A stretch of DNA of 44,072 bases, filler included, from Jimgerdemannia flammicorona (lineage: Eukaryota), in the NCBI GenBank assembly GCA_003990765.1. It is 2 parts of 2 records of this genome, joined end to end, with 100 filler letters (N's around TTAATTAATTAA, not from the genome) between each part and the next. Parts side by side here need not be neighbours in the genome. Positions count along the whole stretch, not along the records: positions 22,094 to 44,072 come from RBNJ01001353.1; 1 more part is not named here. One strand, 5' to 3'. Each line of letters opens with the position of its first letter. Position 1 is the first letter of the stretch. A program made the translations under genes and the position numbers. The notes under the pieces were generated by a model, which saw nothing but the letters and a program-made list of their open reading frames with translations, ran no database searches and was not told the origin of the DNA. Shown here piece after piece: positions 1,979-43,953 of the stretch.

Positions 1979-4900
1979 TTACCCACCACCTGGACCCTCC
2001 CTCCACTTTTCTGACACATATACTTCACTAATCTCTGGTATCTACCCCCATCAGGTCCCCACCCCTGCCACTAGCTATTCAAAATGTCCAATAGCAGTCA
2101 TTTCCACTATGCTACTCTATCTCTAATCCCTATCTGCTGACCCTTCCTGAATACATATAACCAATACCTAGCTAGCCCAACCCAAATTACCAGAGCCCAA
2201 CCCAGGGTCAGCCATTTGTCCCCAACCCCCCCCCACTAACCTGCAATGGAGCTCACCCCATCTCCCCCCTTCCCCTCCCACCAGGGCTCGCAGTCCTAGT
2301 CTATCAGCAATGTGGTACCAAAAAACCCCCAGAATGTCATACTCACCAAGCCATGTTCAGATATTTGAATCACTCCCCCTTCCTGTCCAACATCCAAACA
2401 TTCCTCACACTCATACTGGCCATCTGCCACCAAGTGTCCAGACCAAAAGTTCAGCATCACATTCTATCTTAGAAACTACTACCACACCACTCAGAACTTG
2501 GGGAGAGCTACTGCATCATCTGCTTACTCCAAGGCCAAAGCTCATTCCAGTTCCACCCCTTGCTGATCCCCACCCTCTACCATCCAGTAGGTCACAGGTC
2601 CCCCTCTAAGCCCCTCAAGTACTCCATATCATCACCAAGCTAAAAGTCCTCTATCAAGATACCACCTAACAGAAGCCTGTCCCATCTCTACATCTGTGGT
2701 CCCCAATCTCCCTTACCTTCATTGCCCTACCATTGAAGACCAATTCTCTGGGCACCATCTACCACCCCCCACCCAAAGCCCTTATACCACATCCTCTCAC
2801 TCCCATCCAGGGCCACCATTGCAAGCAGGTCACCAGATACACCATGGGGGGAATACTGGGCCTCCCACATCCTTTGCATAAGCAGTACCCACTCTTGTCC
2901 CCTTAACTCACTTGCCCTCTTCAGCCACCACACTTATAGGTAATGAAGACATTTGGGGAAGTCCACCAAGCCCAGTCTGCCACCCTCCACAGGTAGAGTC
3001 AGTACCTCTCATCCAATCTGACTTCACTGCTCTGTCCAGATCTATGTCCTTACCATCTTCAGAAGGTATCTGATCACTCATGCTGGAAAATCCAGATAGT
3101 ACCCCACATACCACAGCTTTGGCAGCCAATATACATTCAGCACCATCACCCTTCCTACCAAGGAAATATGTTGACTGCCCCACCATAAAAGTACATCCCC
3201 CCATACTAGGAGTCACTATTCCCATCAAGCGCAAAGAAGGAGAGACCCATATATAGAGAAGTAAATCCCCAGATAGTGAACAGGATCTCCTGCTGGCACC
3301 ACTATCCCAATCATATTACTACCAACTATACCTCCACCTAACACCATAGTCTCACATTTGTGCCAATTAAGTCTAGCACCAGAGCCTCTCTCATACTATT
3401 CCACAGTCTGCTGTAATTCCTCCACATCTGCCAATGAACCCAATCTAACTACCATATCATCTGCAAAGGTCCCCACCTTCCAATTAATCTCCAGAATATC
3501 TAAACCCCCAATTCGATGTCTGATCCTGTCCAATAGGGGCTCTAAGGAAAGGGCATACAAGATGGGTGACAAGGGATCCCCCTGCAGCACTCCATGACCC
3601 AGAGGGAAAGTGACCCCCCTGTGTCTATTGACCACCAAGACTGTCTGACTGTCCTCCAAAAGTCTGATTAACAACCTCCGGAACCCTGGTAAAATACTCA
3701 CCTACTTCAGCACCCCTTCTAGCCAGATCCTCTACACTCTATCATATGTCTTCTCCTGATCTAGAAATATCAGTCATCCATCAACCCTGGTAACCCGAGC
3801 CCCTTCAATCACTCTATGGACCCAGGCCATCCCATCACGAATCAACTAACCACCAACAAAACCTCTTTGCTCAACTCCCAGCACTTGCTGAGCGATCTCC
3901 CACAGCCTAGCCACCAAGACCTTTGTAACCAGCTTGCAGTCCATATCAAGGAGCATGATCAGATGCCAGTTCTTCTAATCTTCTCTTTACCCCTTATCTT
4001 TAAAGAGCAAAGAGACCAGCCCTAGATGCTGGCCCCCAATCTAAGTTCTAGACCAAAGAACCTCATCACATATCCCTGTCAACTCCTCCAACACTACCTC
4101 CACCCTGGCCATCTTTTTCCAAAAATCCCAGGGAAGGCCATCCTCTCCCAGTGCTGTCCCCTTGCTTGTCGAAGCCAGGACCTTGCAAATCTCCTCTCCT
4201 CTCACTCGGTCCCCCAGAGCCCCTAGACCCATCACTGGGTTCAGATGCTAATCCTCCAACTGCCATTCAATGTTCAAGGTATCTTCACCCCCTTCTTCCT
4301 TACTTCATAGGTCCTCCTAGCAGGATCTTAGCAATCCCAAAATTGCTGGAGTCCCCACTACTATCTCCCCATCCTCATCCAAAACACTATCCCACTGCTG
4401 CTTAGTTCTCTGCACTTGTAACATCCATAATAAAAACCGAGTGGGTTGCCCCCCCTCCTCCAACCCTTGCTACCTTAACCTTGTTACCATCCCCTTCAAT
4501 GTAGCCTCTTCCTCCAACCATAGCACCTCCTTAAGTTTCCTGACCTCTGTTTGAATCCTTACAATATGCCAGTCTATTACATACCTCTCTATCTTCTAGT
4601 ACCCCTGCCCATCTCTCCAGGAGTGTTGCCAGCCTCTGCAAGGCCCAGTGTACTCTCTGCCACCACTAAGCACTCCTCCCTTTCTCTGCCTCCCTCTAAT
4701 ATCCCTGAGCACTTGATTTCAGCCTTCTCCAATGATCCCCAATCACCAGGCCCCACTCCCACCATTGACTGATTTTTCCAATGACCCCCATCTCCCAATC
4801 AGCCCATAAATCGCTATCCTTCAACAAAGAGAAATTGAGCTGCCAATATCTAGGCCCATCCCCACTTCCCCCAAACCTCCCCCCCCCAAGCAAACCTCAG

Positions 4901-5580
4901 TGATCAGATCATGGATACCAAACCACCTCCAGCATAGCCCAGACACCCACTTCCCAGCATTCCACTGTCAGTATCCAGTCAATTCTAGAGCCCAGCCCAG
5001 CCACCCAGTGAGTATAAATTCAACAATCCTCTCAGAACTGTCTCTCTGAGTCCACCAAAGAGCTCAACCTTTCCATCTCCATCCAACCATCCAACCTGCC
5101 ACTTTGACCCTTCATCTCTCTCCCACCATTGGTCTGGTCCATTACATTATCTCTTACTATGTTGAAATCCCCCCCCAGGCATTCAATTTCAGCCTCAACC
5201 ATAACACCAGCCTCTTGCAAATTCCTGATCCAGTCCACCTACTCCCCCCTGTCTGCTAGGTAATAATATGACCCAACCATCAAAGGGCTCCAACCAGGCC
5301 TCTTCTACACTTCCTATACCAACCGACTCCCTCAATGTCCTATATCACCAATGCCCTCCATCCCCTTTCGAACTAGGATACCCACTCACTCAAACTACAC
5401 TGCCACTCTCCCCCACTCTCTAGTCCAATCCAGAAAGTCCACATCTGCCTTATAATGTATATCCTGTAGTAAGAAGAGATCCACATCCAGCCCCTTGAGC
5501 TAACCAAATATAAACCTTTGCCGAGCCACCCCCCTCAACCCATTTATGTTCAAAGAGAATATTTTAGTTATACTATTCAT
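1979..5580 (-). pseudogene. LINE ORF2: APE endonuclease + reverse transcriptase (stops and frameshifts)
   Basis: Motifs MNSITKIFSLNINGL..LQDIH, GGDFN, RIDWIL, SDH, DQEKTYDRV, GVLQGDPLSPILY and FADD. The 3' end is approximate. Confidence 0.92.
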
Positions 5581-7417
5581 ATTGAATAATGTTTGAATGT
5601 GATAACTCAGCCTAGTACTCCATGCTCATCTCATCCCCAGTCAGATCCAATTGCTACTCTGCTTCCAAGTCCCCCTTCACTACAGCCTGAGCATCCAATA
5701 CCTCCAAGATTTCCTGACATTCCACCCCATCCACCACTTCTATCTCTGCCTGATAGTCTGCACAGACCACTCTCCACTTCTCCAATCCCTTCCTTGATCC
5801 CTACAAGTAAGCCACCCTATTATTCACAATCTCCTGGAGTTCCTCCTCTCTCTGATCATCGACCTGATATTCAACTGATTCTAATAGTACTATCAGGATC
5901 TCATTCCTAACCTTTCTTGATACCTCCTCTCCATGAAGAATTTCCTTCCAATGCCTTTCTTCCATAACCTAGAAGTCCTCTCTCCCCAGCTTCTCTGCTG
6001 CCACCTCTTCCAAAGTCTTCTATAGCCACTTCTCCTCATCTACTACCTCCACCATACCCTGGGCAATCTGACCATCTCCCACCCCTAGGTCCACCAAAGT
6101 GCTCCTCCTCACCAACTCATCCCACTCCTTATCTGGGATATCCAGTAACTCCTCCTCACCCTCTGCTCCCTCAGAGACACTATACTGAGGTCAGACTCCT
6201 TTGCTCATCTCTACATCTGCCTCCATACTGCCCTGCATCTCCTCTCTTGGTCTGACCTGGGCCCTATCTCAAGCCATCCCACTTCCTCCCACCCAGTCAC
6301 TCACATGCAATCCTGCTATCCCATTCCCTGTGCTACTGCCAGCCCCACTACCACCCAACTTCGCCAGCAGCTTCTTCTGGATTCTCCTCCCTTGCATCTT
6401 CTCCCAGGTCACCTTGTCCACTCTGGTCCTCTTCCCTTCAATGACTTCCACCACTATCTTCACTTCATACTTCTGCCAAGCCAATCTCCTCCTCTTGACC
6501 ACCCCCTCCAGGTCCTCAAGAGCCTCAAGCAAATCTTTCTCCTCCTCTAGAGACCCCTTCACTCACATGACCTTACACTCTACTAGTCCCTACTTTAGAG
6601 TCACTGGCCAATCCCTTGTCTTTCCCATGTTCTCCTTTCTGGCCAGCCTCACCCAGACATCAATGTCACCAGTCCTGAGCTCCATTCCTTCCCAGACCTT
6701 GAACCTAATATCCACAATCTCCCCATACTCCTTGACCGCCCCCACAATCAGCTCTCTGGCCCTCTCCCTTGACACTATAGGAAGATCCAACACTGTCAAC
6801 TACACCACTTGGGGGTCCCAGCACATACACCTAGCCATAGGGACCACAACTTCACCCACCATCACCCCCTTCTCCATAGCAGCCAACAATGCTTCCTCTT
6901 CCTCAAACTCCACCTCAACTCCTTCTTTCCCCTTCAAAAACTTCACTGATGCTGTCCCCTTCGCCTCCTGTACCACTAGTCTCAAGATCATCCTCACAGT
7001 CATTACCAAGCCCCTGAAGCACATCATGATGGCAAATTCCAACCTAGATTTCTTGAGTAACAGTGCCGACACCATGCCCGTCACCCCATCTGCCAGGTCC
7101 CTGGGCCTCATGCCCACCCTCTGTCCTGATTCATCAACTGCCATCACATCTGGATTTTTTGCCAGATCCCCAGTCACAGCTCCATCAACAGTCACATCAC
7201 CAGCTCCTACTCCCCCCCCTCCCCTACCACTGGACACTCTCCTGGGTACTCCTCTCTGACTTCCAGTAGTAGCTATTGATGCCTTCCCCAGTCCCAGCCA
7301 ACCATCCAGATCTGAGATCATCCTCCTCATCTTGACCTTGTCAGCCAAGGTCAACCTCTCCCCTCCTCACTGTCTCAAGCCACCCCTCCCTCTACCACTA
7401 GTGTCTTGGCCAGCCAT
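5573..7417 (-). pseudogene. LINE ORF1 (gag-like, degenerate)
   Basis: In-frame fragments 6800-7354, 6590-6799 and 6269-6562 are separated by single stops. The final stop overlaps the ORF2 ATG. The start is approximate. Confidence 0.75.
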
Positions 7418-7782
7418 CGAGGCCCCTGGCATCCCCAAACCATCTTCTCTCCTTTCCACCTATTGCCAGCCAAAGGCACCACTGCCCCCCTGGCCAGTAT
7501 GCTCACCAGTTCAATCATTGCCATCTATGTCAATAGTTGTCTGTTATCAAAAATGTTGAAAAAGTATTGTCTGAGTCTTGTGTCACCTGAATGGTACTAG
7601 TGAAAGATGTGTGGCCCTCACTTAGCTACCAACTACTGGGTAACCCAAAGGAATCTATACTAGATAGATTATGAAGTTATAAGCCTATAATATAACTATT
7701 GTACACTACTTTGGAAGAACTAATACCAATATAGATGCTCTCTTATAGATACTTCAAAGGACTTCTAACCAGTAAATCAATC

Positions 7783-8966
7783 ATGAATAAGGAGCTCTAC
7801 TATTGAATTATCATCTATCTGAGATAGTGAAAGATATCCTAACATCTGAAAGAATGAATATAAAAAATTATCAATAGAACATATAAATAATTTAAAACTG
7901 ATAAAGAAATACTGAAAAAAGAAAAACTACTAGTCATACTTAAATATAAAAAGAAGCAAGCAATGAAATCAGTATATGAACTTAGCTATCTAAGAGAAAT
8001 AAATATATATGATAAAGTAAGAAAAACAATACAGTGATCAGAAATAGAGAAAGATATCAGATAATTTATCAAGACCTATAATAAATACCAGAAACAGAAA
8101 CAAGACCAACAAAATCAAGCTCCTGGATTAGTATACATAGAACTAGTACCCTTTGTATATATTGCAATAAATATAATTAGCCCCCTACCCTTGACTTTAA
8201 ATAGCAACTGATATATTATTATTATTATAGACCTTTTCACAAAATAAATAGAGGCAGAACCCCTCAAAGAAGCCAATATATAGTCAATTACCAATTTCTT
8301 TTATAAAAAAATCATCTGCTAATTTACGACTCCAACATAAGTAACAACAGACAGAGGAATAGAATTTATGAATTAGTTCTTTGAGGTTCTCTATAAGAAG
8401 TACAAGATCTAGTATATTTGGACTATAGCCTATTACCCTCAGAAAAATAAATAAGCAGAAAGAACTAATAAAACTCTCAAGAATGTCATCATCAAGATCT
8501 GCAATAATTATGAAAACTGGAACCACTAGCTATCAATAGCATTATCTGCTCTCTAAGATATCTAATTACAAAGTACCTATTTTACCTCTTGGGAGATACT
8601 ATTCAGAGAAGAAAGTTCTCAAGAAATCTTATTGTCCAATAGAGATACTATATAGATATAGAGATATGGAGACTATATCAAATTAGAAAGAAGGCTGAAG
8701 ATTATATAACTAAGATACAGGTACTATAACAGAATAATGTGAAAAAGTTTTATAAGTCTTTAGAGATTATCAAGATAGAAGATAAAGTCTTAATATATCA
8801 GAATATAGTAGAAGCTTTATAGTCATAAAAGCTGGAGCCTAAGTGAGAAAAATCTTACCTTATACAAGATATAAAAGGAACTACCTTTTAGTTATAAAAA
8901 CTTTCAAGTATAATTATCTCCACTACTACTCATCAAAATCAACTCAAGAAATATCATGACCAGTAA
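7783..8966 (+). pseudogene. Integrase of element A (separate ORF)
   Basis: Starts MNKELYY. Shows a degraded HHCC zinc finger, IDLFTKIIEA, TDRGIEF, AERTNKTLK and KLEPK*..NQLKKY. Confidence 0.88.
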
Positions 8967-10738: not shown

Positions 10739-12325
10739 TATCACATAGTGGTTGCTGAGTTCTTCAAATATATCAGATTCTCTCCAAGGTATATCTTTTA
10801 GACTAATCTCAAGTTTGTTATAAACAAGTTCTTATTGGAGTACTTTTCCAAGATCTTATAGTTCTCAAACTTCTTATCTTTAAACTGTCTTATTATCTCT
10901 TAGATTGCTTATATAGAATTGAGAGTAAGTGAACTAGAACTGAGTTTATTTTAAAAAAAATAAGAGGGGTATTTATATAAAATATAATTTAATAGTTACT
11001 AAGTTATAAAGCTAAATATAAATTCCAATAACTAAATAAAATACTGGAATACAGAAAACTATAGTTGTAAGTACAAGTTTAAGTATCTGTATAAATAGTT
11101 ATACAAGTTTAGAATATGAGTAGAATTTCAGTAGTACAGGAAAAGGATACCAGAAGAATTCTGAGTTATACAAGATCAGAATATCTAGTAGAATCTAGTG
11201 TTACCAAGAACTTAAAGCAGAAAGTTCAGAACTATGAGAGCTTCATCTTTGTCATTATTATCAAGACCAGAGGTCAGAGACAGAATATCTTTGAAGGAGA
11301 TGAGATCTACAAATATTTCATCTATTTCACATATGTTATATATTTTGCATGCTTTGTACATGTCACACAGGATGATGTCATCACCAATGACATCATTATA
11401 AGTGATGTCATCTTATTTGGCAGTAGTAGAGGCTCTCTAATCTATGACATTCTCTTCTACAAAATAAAGAACAAATGTAGGGTCTTGGAGAGGTCTAACC
11501 TGGATACTAGGGCCTTGGAATGCTGAGATCAATCTTTGTATAAATTGATCTGGGTTGTCCTGAAGGATGAGATACTAGAAGTCTTCTACTTCATTACTAT
11601 TGAGGATAATAGTAGACTGAGCCTCTGTAGCCACTATGACCTCCAGTACATTGGTATGGTAGGTGGACAGTTCCTTGAAGTCTGAGATCCTAGTATACTC
11701 TAAGTTGGGGATTGACCATAGTATATGCCAGAAGATCTGATGAATCTTCTTTGCTATCCTTATTTTATGTATATCTATGGAGATAGTATCTTGAATCTCC
11801 TGGAGACTGGCCTGAGGAAACTTCTAACAGAAAAGGTTTCTTATTTCATACTTATGCTATATCCAGAGGTATTCAGTAGCAATGGTAATCCTTATTTCCA
11901 TTTCATAATAGTAGAAGATATAATAATAAGGGTTGTTAGTACCCAAATTGATGCTAGGAGTCCTTATTATGTATGTAAGTCTTCATGGCTCTTCTGATGT
12001 CTTGGAATATTCTTTTCTGGACTGAGGGGCCTTAGTGATTTCTAGACCTTGAGGTTTGACAAGTGGCAGGTATTTGTTTGTAGTAAGTCTTTAAAACTAT
12101 TTCTGTAAGCTTTATTTGAGCTGCTACTACTACAGTTTCTTGATCCTTCTTTTATATTTCTCAAGGTATCTGTCTTGTAGTCATAATGACTCACAGTTAA
12201 TTATTATCACTCATCTTATAGTCTAGATGAGTCATATCATATGATCTTCTTATGCTTCAATCTGATAGCTTATAAGGAAAAGCTGTCTCCTATACTGATG
12301 TTATCATTCTGAAGTCACTATTATA
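10739..12325 (-). repeat. 3' LTR of element B
   Basis: Colinear with 18009-19593. Minus-strand TATA box near 10970 and AATAAA at 10945-10950. Confidence 0.95.
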
Positions 12326-13884: not shown

Positions 13885-15350
13885 ATTGAATAGTCTTGAT
13901 GGGGGTATTTCAGGATGTTCTTGAGAGTGTATCAGTATTGGCATTAGTTCTTCCTAAGTGATACTTAATAGTACAGTTATACTCTTATAGTCTATAGATC
14001 TATCTGGCATATATTCCTTTAGGATTCAGAGTATAGAATAGCCAGGTGAGAGCAGAATGGTCTGTTTGAATAGTGAAGTATTTCCCAGCTAGGTAGTAGT
14101 AGAACTTATCTACTACTCAAACTACTACTAAGTATTCGAGTTTGAATGACTCATAGTTCTGTTCTGCTCTGTAAGTATCTCAGCTTACATAGGAGATAAC
14201 ATATTTATATCTATCTTTCTTCTGAGCTAGGACTGCTCTAAGTCCTATAGCACTTACATCTGTCTGCAGGATGAACTCTAGGTTCTAATCTAGTCTTCTA
14301 AGAATGGTACTTGAGTCAACCTAGTCTTGAGTTTATTGAAGGTTTCTTGGCATTTCTTAGTCTATTTGAATTTGGTCTCCTTCTTCAGTAGCTCATAGAT
14401 GGGTGCTGTAATATTGAAGTATCCTTTGATAAATCTTCTGTAATAGGAGACCAGTCCAAAGAAGGCATAAACTTCTATAGTTGTTCTGGGTCTTGGGTAG
14501 GCTGCAATAGCCGCAATCTTCATGGGGTCTGTGTGAATTTCAGTCTGGTTGATGAGATATCCTAGGTAGGCAATTTCCTGAGCTACAAACTTGTACTTCT
14601 TAGGCTTAATATAGAGGTTATACTCCTTGAGCTTCTTGAGGGCTAGCTGTATATGGTTAATATGTTTTTGTACAGTATTACTGAAGATGATCACATTATC
14701 AATATAGACAAGAGCCATTTTCCAATCTTATTGCTGAAGACTCTGTTCATTATTCATTAAAAACTTACTAGAGCATTACATATTCCAAATAGTATTCATA
14801 GATAGACATAGGTGATATTAGGTATAATGAAGGCTAATTTCTCACTAACATCTTGAGTGAGACCAATCTGATAGAAGCCTGAGAACAGATCCAAGGTAAT
14901 GTAGTATTTGGCTTTACTTTCAAGAGTGGTAAGAATTTTTTGAATATTTGGCAAGAGCTGCCTATTCTTCTTAGTAATTATATTGAGCTTTCTGTAATCA
15001 ATACAGAGTCTTGGGGCAAACTCTCCAGGCTTGCTTCCTTTCTTTGAGGTAAGGACAATAGGTAAAGCCCAGGGGCTGATAGCTTGCTTAATGATTCTAG
15101 CTTCTTCTATTTTCTTGAGTTCTGCTCACAACCATTCTCTGTAGGCAGATGGTATAGGTCTGGCTTTCTGATAGATAGGCTTGGTATTGCCAGTATAAAC
15201 TTCATGATAGTACTTGAGCTCTTAATTGTAGATGTCCTTGAAGTCTGTGGCAAGTACTCCTTTGTTCTGGTATAAGATCTTGAGAAATTGTTCCTCTAGG
15301 GGAAAGTTTTCTCCATTGATATATGTATACTTATTCTGATCCTTGTCTTT
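13877..15350 (-). pseudogene. Reverse transcriptase + RNase H of element B
   Basis: LCIDYRKLN, TLDLFSGFYQI, VYIDNVIIFS (YIDD mutated), FFGLVSYYRRFI, FILQTDVS and QTDHSALTWL. Confidence 0.93.
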
Positions 15351-15389
15351 CTTGTACTAAAGTTCAGTAATCTTGATAGCAGTATAGGC

Positions 15390-15810
15390 TTCTCTTCCAG
15401 TAAATCCAAAGTCTTGTTCTCCTCTTTTGGTCTTAATAAGTTTAATGGCTTCAGTGATCTTGGGCTTCTTAACTTCATAGATCAGCATCTGGTCAATCCT
15501 ATTATACTTCTTAACTTCAAATAGAGTAGTGGGGTTGTAATTCCTAACTATGGGGAAGATCTCACCAGTGTAATCAGAGTCTATTACTCCTCTTTCAACT
15601 GAGATTTTACTTTTAGCTAGACTGCTCTTGGTCTTGATAATTCTAGTATAGTTCTCTAGCAACTTGACTCCAATTCCAGTATCAAGTAGAGTAGTGGTCT
15701 GTGGTTTGAGGGTAGCATCTTGAATACTGGTAAGGTCTATTCTTATGGCTCCTTCAGTCTTATATTCTGGGATCTTAGCTTTGGGGTGAAACTTCTTAAT
15801 CTTGAGAGTG
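15390..15810 (-). pseudogene. dut: Trimeric dUTPase domain between protease and RT
   Basis: All five motifs are recognisable: GAIRIDL, KSSLAK, GVIDSDYTGEI, RIDQM and RGEQDFGFTG. Confidence 0.93.
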
Positions 15811-16149
15811 ATGTCTGGTTCATCATTGCTGTCAGCTTGAAGCTCTGAGAGCTGGTCATCTTCTTCAGCTTCTCTTTTTGCTTCAGCAATTTCTTGTTTA
15901 TACTTTTGTTGGTAGATTTTCCTGACTTTACTGATATAGGACCAGTAGTTATTTAGGTATTTAGAGCAGTACATCCTGGTACCATGGGGGTATCTTCCTT
16001 AAGGAGCATAATTATCAATGATCTTATTATACTACTGCTCATCTGTGAGCTTAGGTGTCTTGCTTTTGTTCTTATATACCAAGTGTATGAAGACTTCTGT
16101 ATCTTCTTCATCTTCTTCCTCTATGTCTGGTAGTACTTCTTTGTGGATA

Positions 16150-18005: not shown

Positions 18006-18008
18006 AGT

Positions 18009-19593
18009 TGTTACATAGTAGTCACTGAGTCCTTCAAATACATCAGATTCTCTCTAAGGTATATCTCTTAGACTAACCTCAAGTTTGTTATAAGCAAGTT
18101 ATTATTGGAGTATCTTCTTAAGGTCTTATAGTCCTCAAACTTCTTATCTTTAAACTGTCTTATTATCTCTTAGATTGCTTGCATAGAATTGAGGGTAAGT
18201 GAACTAGAACTGAGTTTATTTCAAAGGAAATAAGAGGGGTATTTATACAAAATATAATTCAATAATTACTAAGTTATAAAGCTAAATATAAATTCTAATA
18301 ACTAAATAAAATACTGAAACACAGAAAACTACAGTTGTAAGTACAAGTTCAAGTATCTGTACAAATAGTTACACAAGTTTAGGATGCCAGTAGAATTTCA
18401 GTAGTACAGGAAAAGGATACCAGAAGAATTCTGAGTTATATAAGATCAGAATGTCAGAAGAATTACAGTTATATAGAAAAAAAATGCTGGTAGAATCTGG
18501 TGTTACCAAGAACTTAGAGCAGAAAGTTCAGAACTATGGGGGCTTCATCTTTATTACTATCATTAAGGCCAGAGGTCAGAGATAGGATATCTTTAAAGGA
18601 GATGAGATCTATGAATGTTTCATCTATTTCACATATATTATACAGGATGACATCATCACTGATGATGTCATTATAGGTGATGTCATCTCATTTAGCAGCA
18701 GTGAGAGCTCTCTAATCTATAACATTCTCTTTCACAAAATAAAGAACAAATGTAGGGTCTTAGAGAGGTCTAATCTGGATACTAGAACCTTGGAATACTG
18801 AGATCAATCTCTGTATAAATTGATCTGGGTTGTTCTGGAGGATGGGATACCAGAAGTCTTCTACTTTATAACTATTAAGAGTGATAGTGGACTGAACCTC
18901 TGTAGCCACCATGGCCTCTAGTATATTGGTACAGTGAGCAGACAGTTTCCTGAAGTCTGAGATCCTAGTATACTTCAAGTTGGAGATTGATAGCGCATAC
19001 CAGAAGACCTGATGAATCTTCTTTGTTGTCTTTATTTCACATATATCTATAGAGATAGTATCTTGAATCTCTTGGAGACTGGCCTGAGGGAACTCCTGGC
19101 AGAGAAGGGTTTCTATTTCATACTCCTACTATATTCAGAGATATTCAGTAGCAATAGTGATCTCTGTTTCCATTTTACAGTAGTAGAGGATATAATAATA
19201 AGAGTCACCAGTACCCAGATTGATGCTAGAAGTCCTTATTGTGTAAGTCCTCATGGCTCTTCTGATGTCTTAGAATATTCTTTTCTAGACTGAGGGACCT
19301 TAGTGGTTCCTGAATCTTGAGGTTTAGTGAGCAGCAGGTATTTGTTTGTAGTAAGTCTTTAGAACTATTTCTATAAGCTTTATTTGGGCTGTTGCTACTG
19401 CAGTTTCTTGATCCTTCTTTTATATTCCTCAAGGTTTCTATCTTGTGATCATAATGACTTACAGTTGATCATTATCACTCATCTTGTAGCCTGGGTAAGT
19501 TATACCATATAATCTTCTTGTGCTTCAATCTGGTAGCTTATAAAGAAAGGCTGTCTCCTATGCTGATATCATCATTCTGAGGTCACTATTATA
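18009..19593 (-). repeat. 5' LTR of element B (carries a second copy of the U3 ORF segment, 18688-~19590)
   Basis: Colinear with 10739-12325 and ends TGTAACA on the minus strand. Confidence 0.95.
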
Positions 19594-21993: not shown

Positions 21994-22093
21994 NNNNNNN
22001 NNNNNNNNNNNNNNNNNNNNNNNNNNNNNNNNNNNNNTTAATTAATTAANNNNNNNNNNNNNNNNNNNNNNNNNNNNNNNNNNNNNNNNNNNN
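21994..22093. other. Artificial contig spacer
   Basis: Exactly 44 N + TTAATTAATTAA (stops in all six frames) + 44 N = 100 bp. Confidence 0.95.
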
Positions 22094-23258
22094 TTTAAAT
22101 AGACTTAATATTCTATAGATTTTTATTGGAAGAGAACCTAGACTATATAGGCCAAAACCCTCCCCCACCACTCACTAAGCACTACCCCCTCATTAATCTA
22201 GGCTAGCTATTGTCTAGCAGCTCAACTATATCAGATGTAGCAGGGCTTATATTGGTCTACACCTCATTCTGCATACCATACTCTCCCTACTACCAGGGGG
22301 AACCCAGTCATATGCCAATGACCAAGAGTGCATGCCCAAGACCCTAACATATATACAAGGCTATACCCAAGTTAAATAGAATAGTCTCTATCACCACAAA
22401 GAAAATGACAGGCAAAGAAAAAACCCTCATCAAAGTACAACATAGTGGGTATGGCCTGGTTCTCCCAGTCAAGGTGAGTAAAGAACTTATATGTGAGGTG
22501 GGAGAAGACCCCCAATACCCCACTGCTCAAGTCTGCAGGCCTCGATCACATTATCATATCAGCTCTCAGTTCTAGTTAAGTGTAGCCAAGATACCTAAAA
22601 TGAGTAGCCTTGGGCCCCCCAATAACTGGGGCCCAACTCACCAAATTGCCAAAAGAAGCTGAGAGTGATATCTACCATCTAACCATACTATATCAATCAA
22701 AAGGCCCCACTGAAGCAGCACCTGCCCCAGCCCTAATGATTATCCCCAGTCTAACACTCTACTGGTTCACCATAATTACTCTTCTACCTATCTATAATGG
22801 TCATCTCCTCTTCCATCCTGATAATATCCAAAAAGCTGTCACCTATGCCAGAACTGTGCTCACCAGAAAGCTTGCCAAAGCCAGAGGGCCCCACCACAGA
22901 TACTGAGAACCTACAGGTAATCTATACTGAGCACTTTATGCCCAAGGTCAGCTGACTCCCTATATAGCCTATGACATACTGAGACAGTATCTTGTTGGTG
23001 ACAGCAAAAGGAAGAAGGTGCCACACTAAAACAAATATACTTCAGACTCAGCCAAAGGCATTAGAAACTGCAAAAAAGTGAAGAAGACACTGATCTGACA
23101 CTGATAAAGGGGCAACTCATCACTATTGTCTCCCTCTCACTATCCTGCAATAGGTATAGTAAACCAACCTGAGGTAGAGGGGATAATAATTGTAGAAAGT
23201 AGACTTGGAAGGTCACCTATCAAACTATTGTAACTGGTAAGGTAGTAGAGAAAAAAAA
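22094..23258 (-). mobile_element. SINE-like/non-LTR family, longest copy (~1.16 kb), inserted in a Copia protease
   Basis: 3' end shared with the other three copies. Copia homology stops abruptly at ~23259. The 5' boundary is inferred. Confidence 0.6.
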
Positions 23259-24775
23259 GTATATAGATGATATTATTATCTTCTAACTTAATAGGTATAA
23301 GGTGTTCAAAAGGCTCATATATAGAGAACTATTCTCTGTATAGTATCATATATTATGTGGCTCCAGAATCCATTAATTAGACATCATTGTTATTAGCTAT
23401 ATTGGCAGACTTATTACTGAGTATATGGTTTACATCATTACTACTTTTTATTGAGTAAAAAGTATTTTACTATTGACTGAAATTTGTAGATGATGGGTTA
23501 GTGGATTTGGTAGTAGATCTTATAGTGGCAGAACTGGTATTAAGAGTAGAACTAGTGACTTGTACAAAAAATAGATTATTACTTTCATCAGTTTTAGTAG
23601 TATTTATATTACCACACTTCTCTTGATAGTTCTTTCTACTACTCCTATATTACCAATGCTGGCTTCTATATTGTTGCTTATTTTTACTGCTCTCCTTATT
23701 ATTATCTCAATGATAACAATGATGTTTCCTATATCCATACTTACTACAGTATTCACAGTAGCTATCATACTTGATTGATTGATTAGACTGGTTATTATAT
23801 TGATTTTGGATTTGCATACATTGGTCTTATTGATTGTACTTTTGATCTCATTTGCCACCATGTCCACAATACTCATAGATAGTATTCTTATCAATATTGA
23901 TACTATTTCCTTAGTACATTTTCTCATTTATGAGACTTATTATTACATGAGTATAGTCCAAAAGACTGCCACTCTCATATATAACTGTAATGATAATATT
24001 ATATGTGTCTGGAAGTCCTCTTATAAGTGCTATAACCTTATCTTCATTACTAATATAATCTACAGATATACTGAGAGAATTCACTTGATTCATCAGATCA
24101 TTGATATAATTGGTATATTTGCAGATGCTCTTCTTTGGCTTCATTTAAAAATTGAATAGCTGAGATTTCAGATGGAATTGATTTAATATGGATACTTGTA
24201 TGTAATACTTATATAGGATCTTTCACATATCATGAGCTATTGTAGTGTGCATTATAAGCTTCATTTGTAAGTTTGATAATATAAATATGATCTTACATAA
24301 TACTTGATAATTATTTGTAGGGTCATAATCTTAAATTAGTACTTATAGCTTCATATACTCTATCAGGCTGTATTTATCAAAGAGATTCATTATATGAAAT
24401 ATCCAAATAGTATAGTCTTTCCCATCAAAGAGTGAGATGGACCTCTTGGCTATGATTATACTAATAACTGGGACTATATTTCCTGTATCTGTTGAGATTA
24501 TACCTATGGATAGAATGCTCATAATTAGTATATCTATTTCTATGCTTATATTGCTAGACTGATCTTCTGATATTTTTAGTATATATGTAGCATATTTAAA
24601 GAGTTGTTTTGCTATAGCTGCTTAGTACTAATGGGGCTCATAACCTTTGTTATAAAGAGAGGTATTTTATTGAAGTTATATTGATCATATATTTCTCTAC
24701 ATTACTGATGAATGATATAAATCTGATAGAATAGCATAAGGTCATATACTGGTATATTGAGTTGCCATCTCAATA
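23259..24775 (-). mobile_element. Ty1/Copia relic 1 (5' LTR 24648-24775, PBS, gag, protease)
   Basis: 128-bp TATTGA..TAACA LTR, PBS GGTTATGAGCCC (24634-45), gag IALIRGLPDTY, knuckle CEYCSKYGYRKHHC, protease *LMDSGAT*YM. Confidence 0.85.
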
Positions 24776-31745: not shown

Positions 31746-31959
31746 TGAAATCTTACCAGATACTTGAAGGAATTATTTCTAGATAGCTTATCTCATTTCT
31801 TACTACTCCAAAAAAGACTCCAACAAATCTGTTATCTATTTCTCCCTGCTGAAAGTAGCTCAAAAAAGCTCCAATTTAGGTCAGTTTATATTAGTTCATA
31901 TCAGCTAGTTTACACCAGTTTATAGTATGGATACCTATCTTTTTTAGAGCTCATTTTTG

Positions 31960-32330
31960 TCACACCTTGCTCTGCCTCATTTCTCTTACTCTACCTTATT
32001 TCTCTTACTCTGTCTTATTCCCTCACTCTGTCTCATTCCCTCACTCTGCCTCATCCCCTCACTCTGCCTTGTCTCCTCACTCTGCCTCATCTCCTCACTT
32101 TGTCTCATTCTCTCACTCTGCCTTATCCCCTTACTCTGCCTTATCCTCTCACTCTCCCCTCACTCTGCCTCATCCCCTCACTCTACCTCATCCCCCAACT
32201 CTGTCTCATCCCCCACTCTGCCTCATCTCTCCACTCTGCCTCATCCCCTCACTCTGCTTCATCCTCTCACTCTATCTTATCCCCTCACTCTGTCTCACCT
32301 TGCCTCATCACTCTGCCTTATCCTGCCTTG
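31960..32330. repeat. 18-bp minisatellite CACTCTGCCTCATCCCCT
   Basis: Roughly 20 diverged tandem units. Confidence 0.9.
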
Positions 32331-32636
32331 CTATCTATTCTGGTATTCTAGCTCACCATCTTGCCAACCTGTCTTACCATCCCATTCTTGCTACCTCATT
32401 CTTGTCACTCTGTTCTCATCACTCCATTCTCATTACCAATTATGTCTTATTATCTACATCAGTACATCATCTGAGCATACTGTCTCACTATTCTTTTCTC
32501 TATTCTTAGGTATGCCTTGATACTTATTTCAGATATATTATATTTATTCTATATTATATACTTGCTTCTTACTATAGCAGTAACTCAGCTATAGCAGTGG
32601 CTTGCTCATAGAGGTGGGGGTGAGGGTGACTTAGTA

Positions 32637-33080
32637 GCTGGTCATAGGAGTGTCTCATAATCTATACTGATAACATACTCTCTTACTCAAGGAGGATCTC
32701 TCACAGCTGGTCTCTGGCATCTTGTTCCAGATAGCATCTGCTTTGATGGAGGCTGGTCAGAGGGGTGTCTTCTGATCTGTACTGACAAAGTACTCTCTCT
32801 CTCAAGGAGGATCTCTTACAGCTAGTCTCTGGTATCTTATTCTAGATAGCATCAGCTTCAGTAGAGGCTGGTCAGAGGGGTGTCCCCTGATCTGAACTAA
32901 TGAAGTACTCTCTCTCTCAAGGAGGACCTCTCATGGCCAGTCTCTTATCATTCTGTCCCAGGCAGCATCAGGCTCAGAGGAGGCTAGTTGGGAGAGTATC
33001 TCCTGATCTGCACTAACAAAGTACTCTCTCTCCCAAGAAGGATCTCTTATAGCTAGTCTTCAGTATCCTATTCTAGATAG
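32637..33080. repeat. ~115-bp tandem repeat, about 3.8 units
   Basis: Units start at 32637, 32752, 32867 and 32983; the core is TACTCTCTCTCTCAAGGAGGATCTC. Confidence 0.9.
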
Positions 33081-33114
33081 TTTCTTTATTTTTTTTCATA
33101 ATTGACTATACTTC

Positions 33115-33400
33115 TGTCTTGCCAGTTTCTCATCTGCTAGTTTCTTATCTGCCAGTTTCTCACTTGCCAGTTTCTTGCCTGCCAGTTTCTCATCTACCAG
33201 TTTCTTATCTGCCTGTTTCTTGCCTACCAGTTTCTTACCTATTAGTTTCTTGTCTATTAGTTTCTTGTCTGCCAGTTTCTCATCTGCCAGTTTCTCATCT
33301 GCCAGTTTCTTGTCTATCAGTTTCTTGTTACTGGTTTCTTATCTGCTCATTTCTTGTCTGCTGGTTTCTTATCTATCAGTTTCCCATCTGTCAGTTTTCT
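33115..33400. repeat. 15-bp minisatellite CTGCCAGTTTCTCAT
   Basis: About 19 units, probably a 5-aa repeat of a decayed minus-strand ORF. Confidence 0.9.
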
Positions 33401-34589
33401 GGAATGGGAGACAATTTTGTCTCTATTGACTTTGACTTGAGTAAATTTCTGACTGCTTCAAGGCTGGAGTTGGAGGCTGTCCTGTCAATACTTACTACTC
33501 TTTTGTCTGGCAGGGCTACTCTCAGGCTAGATTTTGAAAAACTACTAGAACACAATATCTTGGAAAATATTTTAGACTCTCTGGCTTATGTTGTCAATAT
33601 GAAGCATAGGATTGATATACTTCAGGAAGTATTCCAGAGCTCTTATCATGAGGGGTTGTCTGAGCTGTAGTATTTCTGCTTTCCTGGGAGCCCCCTCTTA
33701 GCAGGTCTGAAGATATATAACTAAATTTTTCAGTATCTTCCAACTGTTAAGATGAGATTGGGTAATTTCTAGACATGATTTCAGAGAGAGCTGGGTATGT
33801 TCATTAATTGCAGGTTATTGATAAGATTATTCTATTTTTATTTAATTTTTCAGAAAGCTAAAAAGGACTGGTATAAAGTGTAATTAGTGGGTTTTTTGAA
33901 TTAACAGTAGCAATACTGGCAAAATCAATAAGATCTTAAAGCTAAATTTGTTCAAACCTAGTTCCAGATTCCAAGTTTAATAGATTTCAAAATATTGAGA
34001 ATTCCAAGGCTCAATCTCACAGTAGAACAAACTACTATGCTCTATATACAAGATCCTGAGAAAGTTGGACATCAATATCCCATCATGTTCTCAGAAAAAA
34101 GAGATCAAAATTGATTTTGAACTGTAATATTTTTGGAGTCCTCTGATTTGCCAACTGGTATTCTGAATTCAAATTGCAATTATATTGTCCTAGATACTAA
34201 TACTAAGGAAGTTATTTTGATAGTTTAGAGGGAGATGTTAAGAGATCAGATAAGTCAGATCTTGATAGATGTTTGTAAGAAGACATTCAAAGTTTGATAA
34301 GCTGGATTATATGGTAAGGCTCAAGCTAGAACCAGGTCTTATGTATCAGCTAGTTATATATGTTAACTTATACTGATAGAATATATTACTATATCATACC
34401 TCTCAATAATTTCATACTAAAAATTGAACAAGATAAATGAGAGGAATATGAAATAATAGTTATAGAGCTTGTTTCACCTCTCTTCACTACCTCTTACTGA
34501 ATGTAGTATCCAATTCATCAACTTTATACAATTTTTGATCAGTTTAACACCCCTTAATATCTACCTCCAGACACTATTTCTGAGAGCAT

Positions 34590-41631: not shown

Positions 41632-42713
41632 ATGTCTCAATCCCCCTTCGACAATAAGCACGCCCACGCTGTCCTCATTGGTACGAACATGGCGTCCTCG
41701 ACAACAAGCTCATCGGCATGATCAACGACGCTGAATTGCTTTATGAAATCCTCGTCGACTCGTCACTGCTGACAGGGGAGCAGGCGACACGAGAAAACAT
41801 CATGAATGTGCTGGATGAACTGGCTTCAGCAACTGAAGACGACAAAGAAGCAACGGTGTTGATTTTCTATTCGGGACGTGGACACCGCGAGAAGGATAAT
41901 AACAGCAACTGGAATGTATACCTTACGCCTTACGGAGCACGGGCCGGCGCCGAACTGATTGACAATTCGGAGCTTCATAGGAAACTTAAAGCATTGGATT
42001 CGAAACAGACCATCTTGCTGTTGAATTGCTGTTTTGCCGCGGGAATCGGAGCTCTCAGCGAATTGGGTACGGGCCACCAAAATGAGAAAGAACTGATGGC
42101 ATTGGGCAACGTGCCTCTCACAAAGAAGAGCATCGACTATTTAAAGGAACATCGCGGATTATGCGTGCTTTCGTTGTCGATGGCCAACGAGAGATCATGG
42201 ACAGGTGTGGCTCTTACCTTTCAATAGAAAAAATACAGCATCTTTACGCTGGGCATTTGCAAGGCGCTCATGGGCGCGTGCTTGAAAACGGCGGGATTCG
42301 TCTACCTGTCCCAAGTCGCGAACTTTTACTAAGAGTACACTCGTTCCAAAACCGATAAGAAGCAAAATCCCTTTCTCGATTTTGCCGGAATCGACAATGC
42401 TCCGATGGCATACTACTCCGACACACTGTTAGCTCAACTTCGGGCACTTGGTGACGAGGACGACGATGTCGAACTTGAAAAATCTGACACCGAGTCGAAT
42501 GACAATGTTGCAGAAAAGAGAACGCACCATGTCGTTTTTAATGGAAACGTGAAAGCGAGCCAGGATGCGAGGGTGATTGCGGGAAGTACTTTTAAGATTA
42601 GTAATGTCAGCGGAGTCGGTAGTTTTTCTGTCTTTGGTGATATAAGGGGGGGGGTCCGGAAATCCAAGATAGCGCAGATGGCAATAGCCAACATTTGTGA
42701 TACCTTTTCATAA
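41632..42713 (+). pseudogene. Intronless caspase-like (peptidase C14) gene with acidic linker and C-terminal amyloid-like repeats; disrupted
   Basis: Motifs HAVLIG, LIGMINDA, QATRENI, IFYSGRG, LLLNCCFAAG, YSIFT..ALMG, GFVYLSQV and QNP. Lesions: frameshift near 41688, stops at 42225 and 42330, catalytic His>Arg at 41877. Confidence 0.85.
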
Positions 42714-43252: not shown

Positions 43253-43343
43253 GACAGATTTGAAAGTTGTAGTCCTCCCTTCAGAAAGGAGTATGCACGC
43301 ACCAAAATCGCGCGTGACATCTGCCTTATCTGAATATATCTGT

Positions 43344-43953
43344 TGTCATGTAGTGGTCGCTGAGTCCTTCAAATATGCCAGATTCGCTTCAAGGTGTATC
43401 TCTTAGACTAACTCAAGTTTGTTATAAGCAAGTTCTTATTGGAGTGCCTTCCCAAGGTCTTATAGTCCTCAAACTTCTTATCTTTAACTGTCTTGTTATC
43501 TCTTAGATTGCTTGCAAGGAAGTGTGTGTATTGCACTGAGAAGACTGACTTTATTTCAGAGGAAATAAGATGGGTATTTATACAAAATATAATTCAATGG
43601 TTGCTAAGATATAAAGCTAAATATAAATTCCAATAACTAAAACTACTAAGTTCCAGGGTTGGCACTGATGGTTGTACAGGTTCAGGATGCTGGTATAATT
43701 CAGTGTCACATCAAAATACCAGTGCTGAAACAATTTTGCATCACCTCAGAATGCCGGTGCTGGCATTATCCAGTGTTACATGAGAATACCAGTGCTGGCA
43801 TTATCCAGTGTAACAAAGAACTTAGAGCAGAAAGTTCAGGATCATGGGGGCTTCATCATCATCATCACTGAAGGAGATGAGGTCCGCGAATTCGTCATGC
43901 AGGCCGCGCGTCTCGCGTACTTCGTTGTCGCGCGTCTCGCGTACTTCGTTGTC
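43344..43953 (-). repeat. Partial, less-mutated LTR of the element B family
   Basis: TGTCATGTAGTGGTCGCTGAGTCC.. is colinear with 10739 and 18009. It has a 24-bp tandem duplication at 43906-43953 and is cut by a poly(A) insertion. Confidence 0.9.

Follow-up and report, generated by a model that had tools for sequence, protein, structure and literature searches.

A decayed caspase-like protease gene in Jimgerdemannia flammicorona and its intact Mucoromycota relatives, a family branching among bacterial NLR effectors with a candidate recruitment tail

We analysed a stretch of 44,072 nucleotides from the genome of Jimgerdemannia flammicorona (Endogonales, Mucoromycota; assembly GCA_003990765.1), here called the window, which joins two parts of two records, the second part (positions 22,094 to 44,072) being taken from RBNJ01001353.1. 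On its + strand, positions 41632 to 42713 hold a gene for a caspase-like protease of the family Peptidase_C14 (C14), followed by an acidic linker and a short C-terminal tail. An initial annotation had read this tail as a two-repeat amyloid motif like that of the fungal prion protein HET-s, and the whole as a candidate amyloid-activated cell-death module. Our analysis shows that the window locus is a pseudogene, a decayed and non-functional copy. Its intact paralogues belong to a family in Mucoromycota (Jimgerdemannia, Endogone, Calcarisporiella) whose proteins join a caspase-fold protease, through an acidic linker, to a short tail that the structure model leaves unfolded, and that would descend from, or share ancestry with, bacterial C14 proteases acting as effectors of STAND NTPase systems similar to NOD-like receptors (NLRs). 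What is new is thus a protease family of a known bacterial kind in an unexpected lineage, the Mucoromycota. With modest confidence we propose that the tail of the intact fungal proteins is a homotypic recruitment tag, while homology of the tail to HET-s is not supported by our sequence comparisons.

The fungal protease family and its bacterial relatives

When the last 126 residues of the window protein were compared by phmmer with 1.84 billion representative sequences, two matches were obtained, P0002 and P0003. P0003 (RUS23969.1) is an intact protein of 354 amino acids from J. flammicorona with a Pfam score for Peptidase_C14 of 46.1 bits (cut-off of PF00656, 21.4 bits), and the phmmer alignment with it passes through the first of the two strings that had been taken for repeats. 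Its identity to the read-through of the window gene is 39% (E 2e-57), and this alignment extends through the linker into the tail. A near-identical counterpart, P0004, is present in a second J. flammicorona strain, and a search with a tail profile added P0005, which is also intact, comes from J. flammicorona and is 84% identical to P0003. The search for intact paralogues that the initial annotation had recommended was thus successful. With a profile of the whole family, 18 proteins were found, among them further proteins of J. flammicorona, Endogone sp. and Calcarisporiella thermophila, three records clustering with these, and bacterial proteins including one from a Blastocatellia metagenome-assembled genome at 38% identity. 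A word-index homologue search with the read-through protein was insensitive, recovering 1 of at least 5 existing relatives.

The AlphaFold2 model of P0003, built from 74 sequences, has a predicted local distance difference test score (pLDDT) of about 90 over the domain and a predicted template modelling score (pTM) of 0.77; an earlier model from 4 sequences reached a pLDDT of 50 and was uninformative. The P0003 sequence matched no solved chain at E ≤ 0.01, and a Foldseek search with the model returned metacaspase 9, MALT1, Yca1, caspase-9 and legumain with E-values between 2e-10 and 4e-07. According to the model, the family has a caspase-like alpha/beta fold. Residues 307-354, which comprise the tail, are left unstructured at a pLDDT of 30-38. 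Pfam matches of the fungal proteins (E ≤ 0.05) are confined to the domain and consist of Peptidase_C14 plus CHAT or Peptidase_C13 below cut-off; the CHAT profile (PF12770) is not reached by P0010 with 17.1 bits or P0012 with 15.6 bits, the cut-off being 24 bits.

In a tree of the C14 domain with 74 rows, the 10 rows of the fungal clade, 3 of which were called fungal by similarity, form one clade inside the bacterial rows with a support of 100 in the Shimodaira-Hasegawa-like approximate likelihood ratio test (SH-aLRT). This clade is sister to 45 bacterial rows with a support of 90, the tree being a quick maximum-likelihood reconstruction with midpoint root. Identity of the C14 domain between the fungal family and the bacterial proteins P0013-P0015 is 33-38%.

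Eight of nine fungal-clade sequences have the same layout, namely a C14 domain, an acidic or proline-rich linker and a C-terminal tail of 35-45 residues. The tails of these eight consist of 40-56% G/N/S/T/Q and 26-38% hydrophobic residues and carry few charges. The tail is real in the sense that it is conserved among close paralogues, which keep it at 45-85% identity. Compared with shuffled sequences, tail similarity within subgroups reaches z 11.6-30.6 for P0003, P0005 and P0006, z 8.7 for P0008 and P0009 and z 29.7 for P0010 and P0012. Similarity of the window tail to those of P0003 and P0005 is marginal (z 3.6-4.3), the value for P0005 (z 4.3) being reached by none of 300 shuffles. The outline given in the initial annotation, a caspase-fold protease, then a linker that is flexible and acidic, then a short tail that the family has kept, is therefore supported.

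The bacterial relatives couple the C14 protease to STAND NTPases by tail or by fusion, as is supported by their gene neighbourhoods. A scan of metagenomes with bacterial family members gave 79 loci with flanks. At 56 of them an entire C14 protein of at most 520 amino acids stands alone and has a tail of at least 20 amino acids; 46 of these were testable, having at least one neighbouring open reading frame (ORF) of at least 250 amino acids with an intact 5' end. At 22 of the 46 loci, the alignment of the protease tail with residues 1-90 of a neighbouring ORF outscored every one of 200 shuffled versions of that tail (z 5.6-21.9), and the partner gene is mostly directly adjacent. Among 21 of the 22 best partners, which were compared with Pfam, 13 contain NACHT, NB-ARC, nSTAND1, iSTAND or AAA_16, often together with TPR or HEAT repeats, and the remaining 8 show PNP_UDP_1, EAD7, propeller repeats, a zinc ribbon or no match. 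The effector-associated domain (EAD) EAD10 was recognised at the N-terminus of one partner (E 4.7e-11), and five bacterial protease tails match EAD10 below cut-off (E 6e-05 to 3e-03). Direct fusions of C14 and NACHT occur in L044 and L045, and in L069 an ORF cut at the 5' end of its contig, assigned to the C14 family by tblastn, continues with NB-ARC and TPR. Other fusions join C14 with TPR (L054), with SIR2 and TPR (L073) and with TIR (L076).

The modules shared between tails and partners are heterogeneous and include Gly/Asn/Val-rich strings of beta type, helical modules and zinc ribbons. Since helical and zinc-ribbon modules make up part of the bacterial pairs, pairing in the C14 family need not mean amyloid. 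At L032, L018, L025 and L034 a Cys4 zinc ribbon (CPACG...RFCxxCG; Zn_Ribbon_1/DZR) makes up all or part of the module that the caspase tail shares with the N-terminus of the NB-ARC or large protein next to it, and such a pairing module is not among the EADs or bacterial amyloid motifs (BASS) in the portions of the literature covered. In L023 (9950-13611) an overlapping downstream ORF of 885 amino acids repeats the caspase tail (GPQTNIGGDVHGSVLSGEFHGPVSIG) at its N-terminus. The first recognisable domain of this ORF is PNP_UDP_1 and not an NTPase, which makes this a pairing of effector with effector.

Searches in the opposite direction yielded less. A metagenome scan with the fungal alignment gave 592 pattern matches and no relatives among them, a scan of prokaryote genomes gave one distant C14 protein of Paludibacteraceae without a tail, and a search of the ESM Atlas with the P0003 tail gave no usable match.

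Possible roles of the fungal tail

In the bacterial systems, protease and NTPase are joined in one protein, or the same tag is found at the C-terminus of the protease and the N-terminus of a neighbouring sensor, and the activated, oligomerised sensor would recruit and cluster the protease. By analogy, the tail of the intact fungal paralogues would be a homotypic recruitment tag, working either through beta-stacking of an amyloid-like kind or through a small adaptor. We lean towards this account; within it, signalling of the amyloid type is a doubtful variant and kinship to HET-s a highly improbable one. From the bacterial arrangement we infer that pairing of the tail with a sensor has been kept in the fungi and that the protease becomes active when clustered. 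The link between the fungal tails and the bacterial tags is one of position and composition and not of sequence, because no similarity exceeds that of shuffled tails and no EAD or amyloid-motif family of Pfam is matched. By eye, the fungal tail resembles a diverged motif of the type "ASGxxAVAIGG...TGDxN" or EAD10, but this idea was dropped after alignments did not rise above shuffles and EAD10 gave no match.

Several observations weigh against a role of the fungal tail in recruitment. No fungal partner was found in a scan of the window ORFs and in one insensitive database search: remnants of NACHT, NB-ARC or gasdermin are absent from the 159 window ORFs (78 of at least 70 amino acids and 81 shorter ones after 34.5 kb), and the search of longer proteins with the tail profile, a word-based and insensitive one, returned P0003 and P0005 only. 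The absence of a partner NLR from the window had already been noted in the initial annotation. Compared with 410 bacterial tails and N-termini, the fungal tails show no similarity above that of shuffled tails, and they match no Pfam family at E ≤ 0.05, the EAD and amyloid-motif families included. Tails from different fungal subgroups are without significant similarity to each other. Between P0003 and P0006, identity is 45% in the tail, 40% in the linker and 54% in the domain, so that the tail is not better kept than the linker. One J. flammicorona protein of 388 amino acids, P0007, departs from the common layout and ends in a hydrophobic, transmembrane-like segment instead of a Gly/Asn/Ser tail, which reflects either a different mode of targeting or an artefact of the gene model. 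Finally, 24 of the 46 bacterial loci show no pairing between tail and N-terminus.

The tail could instead be an ordinary disordered, low-complexity C-terminal extension that has no partner-specific role and resembles motifs in composition only. The results just listed on bacterial motifs, on the linker, on Pfam and on partners are all in its favour, as is the low pLDDT of the tail. A simple extension is harder to reconcile with a length, a position and an uncharged make-up of Gly/Asn/Ser and hydrophobic residues that are kept across Endogonales and Calcarisporiella and contrast with the acidic linker, with the identity that close paralogues retain in the tail, and with bacterial sister groups that demonstrably pair through the same position. 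We therefore regard this explanation as possible but rather unlikely.

Somewhat more doubtful still is that the tail represents a new family of amyloid signalling motifs unrelated to HET-s, comparable to BASS, PP, sigma or PUASM and templated in a prion-like manner by a sensor. Its length, its position and the composition given above are typical of such motifs, each subfamily has its own distinct tail, Gly/Asn/Val-rich motifs occur in the bacterial pairs of tail and N-terminus, and an association of BASS with CHAT is in print (10.1101/2020.01.06.895854). This proposal is weakened by the failure to find a partner, by the part of the bacterial pairing that runs through helical or zinc-ribbon modules and not through beta motifs, and by the lack of significant internal repetition, the best value among nine fungal tails being z 2.2. 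The more specific idea that intact paralogues from Endogonales and Calcarisporiella, of the type of P0003, P0005 and P0006, act as caspase-like executioners, activated when the matching motif of an NLR-type sensor templates them in a prion-like or amyloid fashion, appears unlikely to us.

For the reading of the initial annotation, a HET-s-related two-repeat prion-forming domain whose NLR-templated beta-solenoid amyloid activates the caspase, the two strings were compared with the HET-s-related amyloid motif (HRAM). The acidic linker and both strings, at 42546-42587 and 42603-42653, are present in the C14 frame exactly as described. In the account of Daskalov et al. 2015 (PMC4518210), as far as its text was covered, the HRAM is defined by an invariant Gly at position 19, hydrophobic residues at positions 5, 8, 10, 16 and 18 and a basic residue at position 15, in pseudo-repeats some 21 residues long. 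In a manual mapping, the first string agrees at positions 8, 10, 15, 16, 18, 19 and 20, which includes the hydrophobic positions 8, 16 and 18, Arg 15 and Gly 19, and misfits at 3 and 5. The second string requires a gap to fit, and the aligned second half of the intact P0003 tail has no Gly at 19. No repeat relationship holds between the two strings, since their best local alignment score of 10 is reached by 1806 of 2000 shuffles. The second string is present at its coordinates, but the GG with which it ends belongs to a stretch of nine G that is unstable in frame and where a related copy (X1, described below) is 5 nt shorter. At E ≤ 10, the window read-through including the tail gave no Pfam match to HET-s_218-289, and a comparison of the tail and its profile with 177,635 solved-chain sequences returned no amyloid entry, HET-s included. 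An HRAM would be expected on a HeLo, HeLo-like or SesA domain, with one matching repeat on an adjacent NLR; the effector domain here is C14 and neither HeLo nor HELL. Despite a tail that is C-terminal, follows a flexible linker and is unstructured in the model, as in soluble prion-forming domains, kinship to HET-s is thus very improbable.

The window copy and its surroundings

The boundaries of the gene were correctly recognised in the initial annotation: an ATG stands at 41632, a TAA ends at 42713, and the product matches Peptidase_C14 with E 1.6e-08 (35 bits) in its longest open piece and E 3e-12 (47.2 bits) as read-through. The features of the locus are as follows.

41632..41685, + strand: N-terminal piece of the C14 gene (MSQSPFDNKHAHAVLIGT, 18 codons), in another frame than the rest; aligns with the start of P0003 (..YALVIGT..)
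41686..41720, + strand: frameshift zone from the N-terminal piece to the main C14 frame; the switch is placed between 41683 and 41720 by comparison with P0003
41721..42443, + strand: Peptidase_C14 (caspase-fold) domain with two in-frame stops; Pfam match and identity to P0003 as given above
41877..41879, + strand: codon for Arg where relatives have the catalytic His, with a His two codons downstream (SGRGH instead of SGH)
42030..42032, + strand: codon of the catalytic Cys, kept (LNCCFA); column C148, invariant in the alignment of relatives
42225..42227, + strand: in-frame TAG; CAG in the copy of sequencing run X1 (about 95% identical) and Gln in the P0002 model
42330..42332, + strand: in-frame TAA, read in the C14 frame
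42453..42518, + strand: acidic linker; 54% D/E/K/R, measured over the 26 residues RALGDEDDD...NVAEK starting 12 nt before 42453
42519..42653, + strand: C-terminal tail (RTHHVVFNGNVKASQDARVIAGSTFKISNVSGVGSFSVFGDIRGG), containing both proposed repeats; positionally homologous to the tails of P0003, P0005 and P0006
42646..42654, + strand: run of nine G; its length differs from that in the X1 copy, which shifts the frame
42654..42713, + strand: last 19 codons and stop (VRKSKIAQMAIANICDTFS, then the stop codon), probably an out-of-frame extension; another frame reads SGNPR and stop, similar to the X1 copy

The reading frame does not merely need repair, as had been assumed. We conclude that the locus is a pseudogene because of the N-terminal frameshift, the in-frame TAG and TAA and the Arg at an invariant His column, and also because 18 non-synonymous and 5 synonymous differences separate it from the X1 copy and its surroundings are retroelement debris. 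His97 and Cys148 (numbering of P0003) are invariant in 74 of 74 aligned relatives, and the catalytic dyad of the window copy is incomplete, with the Cys kept and Arg in place of His, unless an alternative alignment with the His two residues later is adopted. A variant genetic code as the cause of the stops was ruled out, as a paralogous copy has CAG at the site of the TAG and the frame shifts too. A match of the window protein to LptD_N (Pfam E 0.003-0.015) lies under the cut-off and was treated as compositional.

P0002 is an annotated paralogue of the window lineage whose gene model of 214 amino acids hops between frames; it differs from the window by 1 nt in length directly before the tail and has SGRGH, with Arg at the His column, in common with it. 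Two public sequencing runs contain small shares of the stretch, from which five short contigs about 95% identical to the window were obtained at a depth of 2.7-5.4, so that single differences in them may be errors. The X1 copy is colinear with the window over 42313-42645, with the tail in frame there too; past 42645 it is 5 nt shorter at the nine-G run and would stop after seven further codons (..GDIKGSGNPT, then stop). A second frameshift has thus probably occurred within the second string of the window copy. The last 19 codons are probably out of frame, because the X1 copy ends early after the poly-G run, because the alternative frame of the window soon reaches a stop, and because intact relatives such as P0003 and P0006 end a few residues beyond the tail. 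The differences between window and X1 copy, in which non-synonymous changes prevail, fit neutral decay. Over 41764-42645, 12 of the 25 listed differences from the X1 contigs have C/G in the window against T/A, and 3 are the reverse transition, which suggests deamination-type decay of repeated copies.

The window is eukaryotic, has a G+C content of 34% and is rich in repeats, and its closest proteins all come from J. flammicorona. Pfam comparison of the 78 ORFs of at least 70 amino acids identified the caspase domain and pieces of retroelements (RVT_1, dUTPase, copia gag); other matches (HC2, Pentapeptide_4, LED_rpt, T-box, DCD) were of low complexity or below cut-off. The decayed retroelement pieces lie on the - strand at 14365-15998 and 23914-24144 (RVT_1 E 2.4e-10 and 4e-07, dUTPase E 1.1e-19, copia-type gag E 2.4e-09). 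A repeat of about 300 bp at 43342-43641, just downstream of the caspase pseudogene, recurs at 18007-18306 and 10746-11036 with 86-87% identity. Positions 2001-8000 form a 6 kb segment of 48% G+C with a strongly negative GC skew (-0.44 to -0.52), long open frames on the + strand rich in Pro/Ser/Thr/Leu and a reverse-transcriptase fragment on the - strand at 3399-3701. Tandem short-period repeats with SPHSA- and LPVSH-like units in several frames occupy 31895-33670, with no Pfam match above cut-off. The filler between the joined parts, at 21994-22093, appears as two runs of 44 N separated by 12 bases.

Known systems and significance

The closest known counterparts are bacterial. In the portions of the literature covered, BASS motifs are described beside CHAT metacaspase domains (Dyrka et al. 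2020, bioRxiv 10.1101/2020.01.06.895854), and bacterial conflict systems are described in which effectors, caspase-like peptidases included, are linked to an NTPase core either by fusion or through a small module of which both partners have a copy, the EAD (Kaur et al. 2020, PMC7159879; 2021, PMC8195603). The architecture, which had been presented as an unfamiliar one, is thus already in print for bacteria. The fungal family has a C14 domain homologous to that of such systems and the same layout of protease, linker and C-terminal module, and it nests among sequences whose tails pair with neighbours in almost half of the testable loci. It differs in that its tails match neither the EAD or BASS-type profiles searched nor the bacterial tails, in its eukaryotic host, in having no known fungal partner, and in that the window copy is dead.

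Amyloid-based pairs of fungi follow a similar logic. HET-S/NWD2 is one of them, and the motifs HRAM, PP, sigma and PUASM occur on HeLo, HELL, SesA, SesB and PNP_UDP effectors; as far as the text of these sources was covered, the instances come from Pezizomycotina (ascomycetes) and Agaricomycetes (basidiomycetes) (PMC4518210, PMC9815663). A survey with CHAT among its 19 effector profiles names, in the text covered, only these four as non-singular effector-side motifs (PMC9815663). The present family shares with these pairs the succession of an effector domain and a short motif at the C-terminus, rich in Gly/Asn and hydrophobic residues, for which templating or recruitment by an NLR is the expected logic. 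It deviates in its C14 effector, in the missing match to the HET-s profile, in the absence of repeats and of an adjacent NLR in the window, and in its lineage, the Mucoromycota.

All-in-one NLRs with an N-terminal CHAT or caspase-like protease, some of which control gasdermins, are reported from fungi and bacteria in the parts of PMC12881547 and PMC10197012 covered. As in these, a caspase-fold protease would form the effector arm of an NLR-type sensor, and such fusions exist among the bacterial relatives of the family. In contrast to these, the fungal protein is a stand-alone protease with a tail, belongs to Peptidase_C14 with CHAT below cut-off, and has no gasdermin-like gene nearby. The yeast type I metacaspase Mca1/Yca1 has, according to the section of PMC2847904 covered, a Q/N-rich prion-like region at its N-terminus. 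It likewise combines a caspase-fold protease with an aggregation-prone region of low complexity and is a structural match of the P0003 model (Foldseek, 4f6o, E 1.6e-08). While its region is N-terminal and Q/N-rich, the tail described here is C-terminal and rich in Gly/Asn/Ser, and the two proteins belong to different branches of C14.

In open-access text we found no paper on a fungal effector combining C14 with a motif, or on such genes in Endogonales; supplements of surveys could hold instances. Within the literature covered, fungal amyloid and adaptor signalling employs pore-forming, lipase or PNP_UDP effectors, and the wiring of protease effectors through short shared motifs is known from bacteria only. 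Taken alone, the window locus contributes little, since the copy is dead and its surroundings are rich in repeats. In the family, protease, linker and tag are arranged as in bacteria, and its sequences branch inside the bacterial radiation of NLR effectors. It would extend this wiring principle to early-diverging fungi and would give a concrete case of eukaryotes taking up bacterial cell-death modules. If the intact paralogues were indeed switched on by amyloid templating, they would represent a new amyloid motif family together with the first protease effector of fungal amyloid signalling, and early-diverging fungi would possess an inflammasome-like pathway of bacterial origin.

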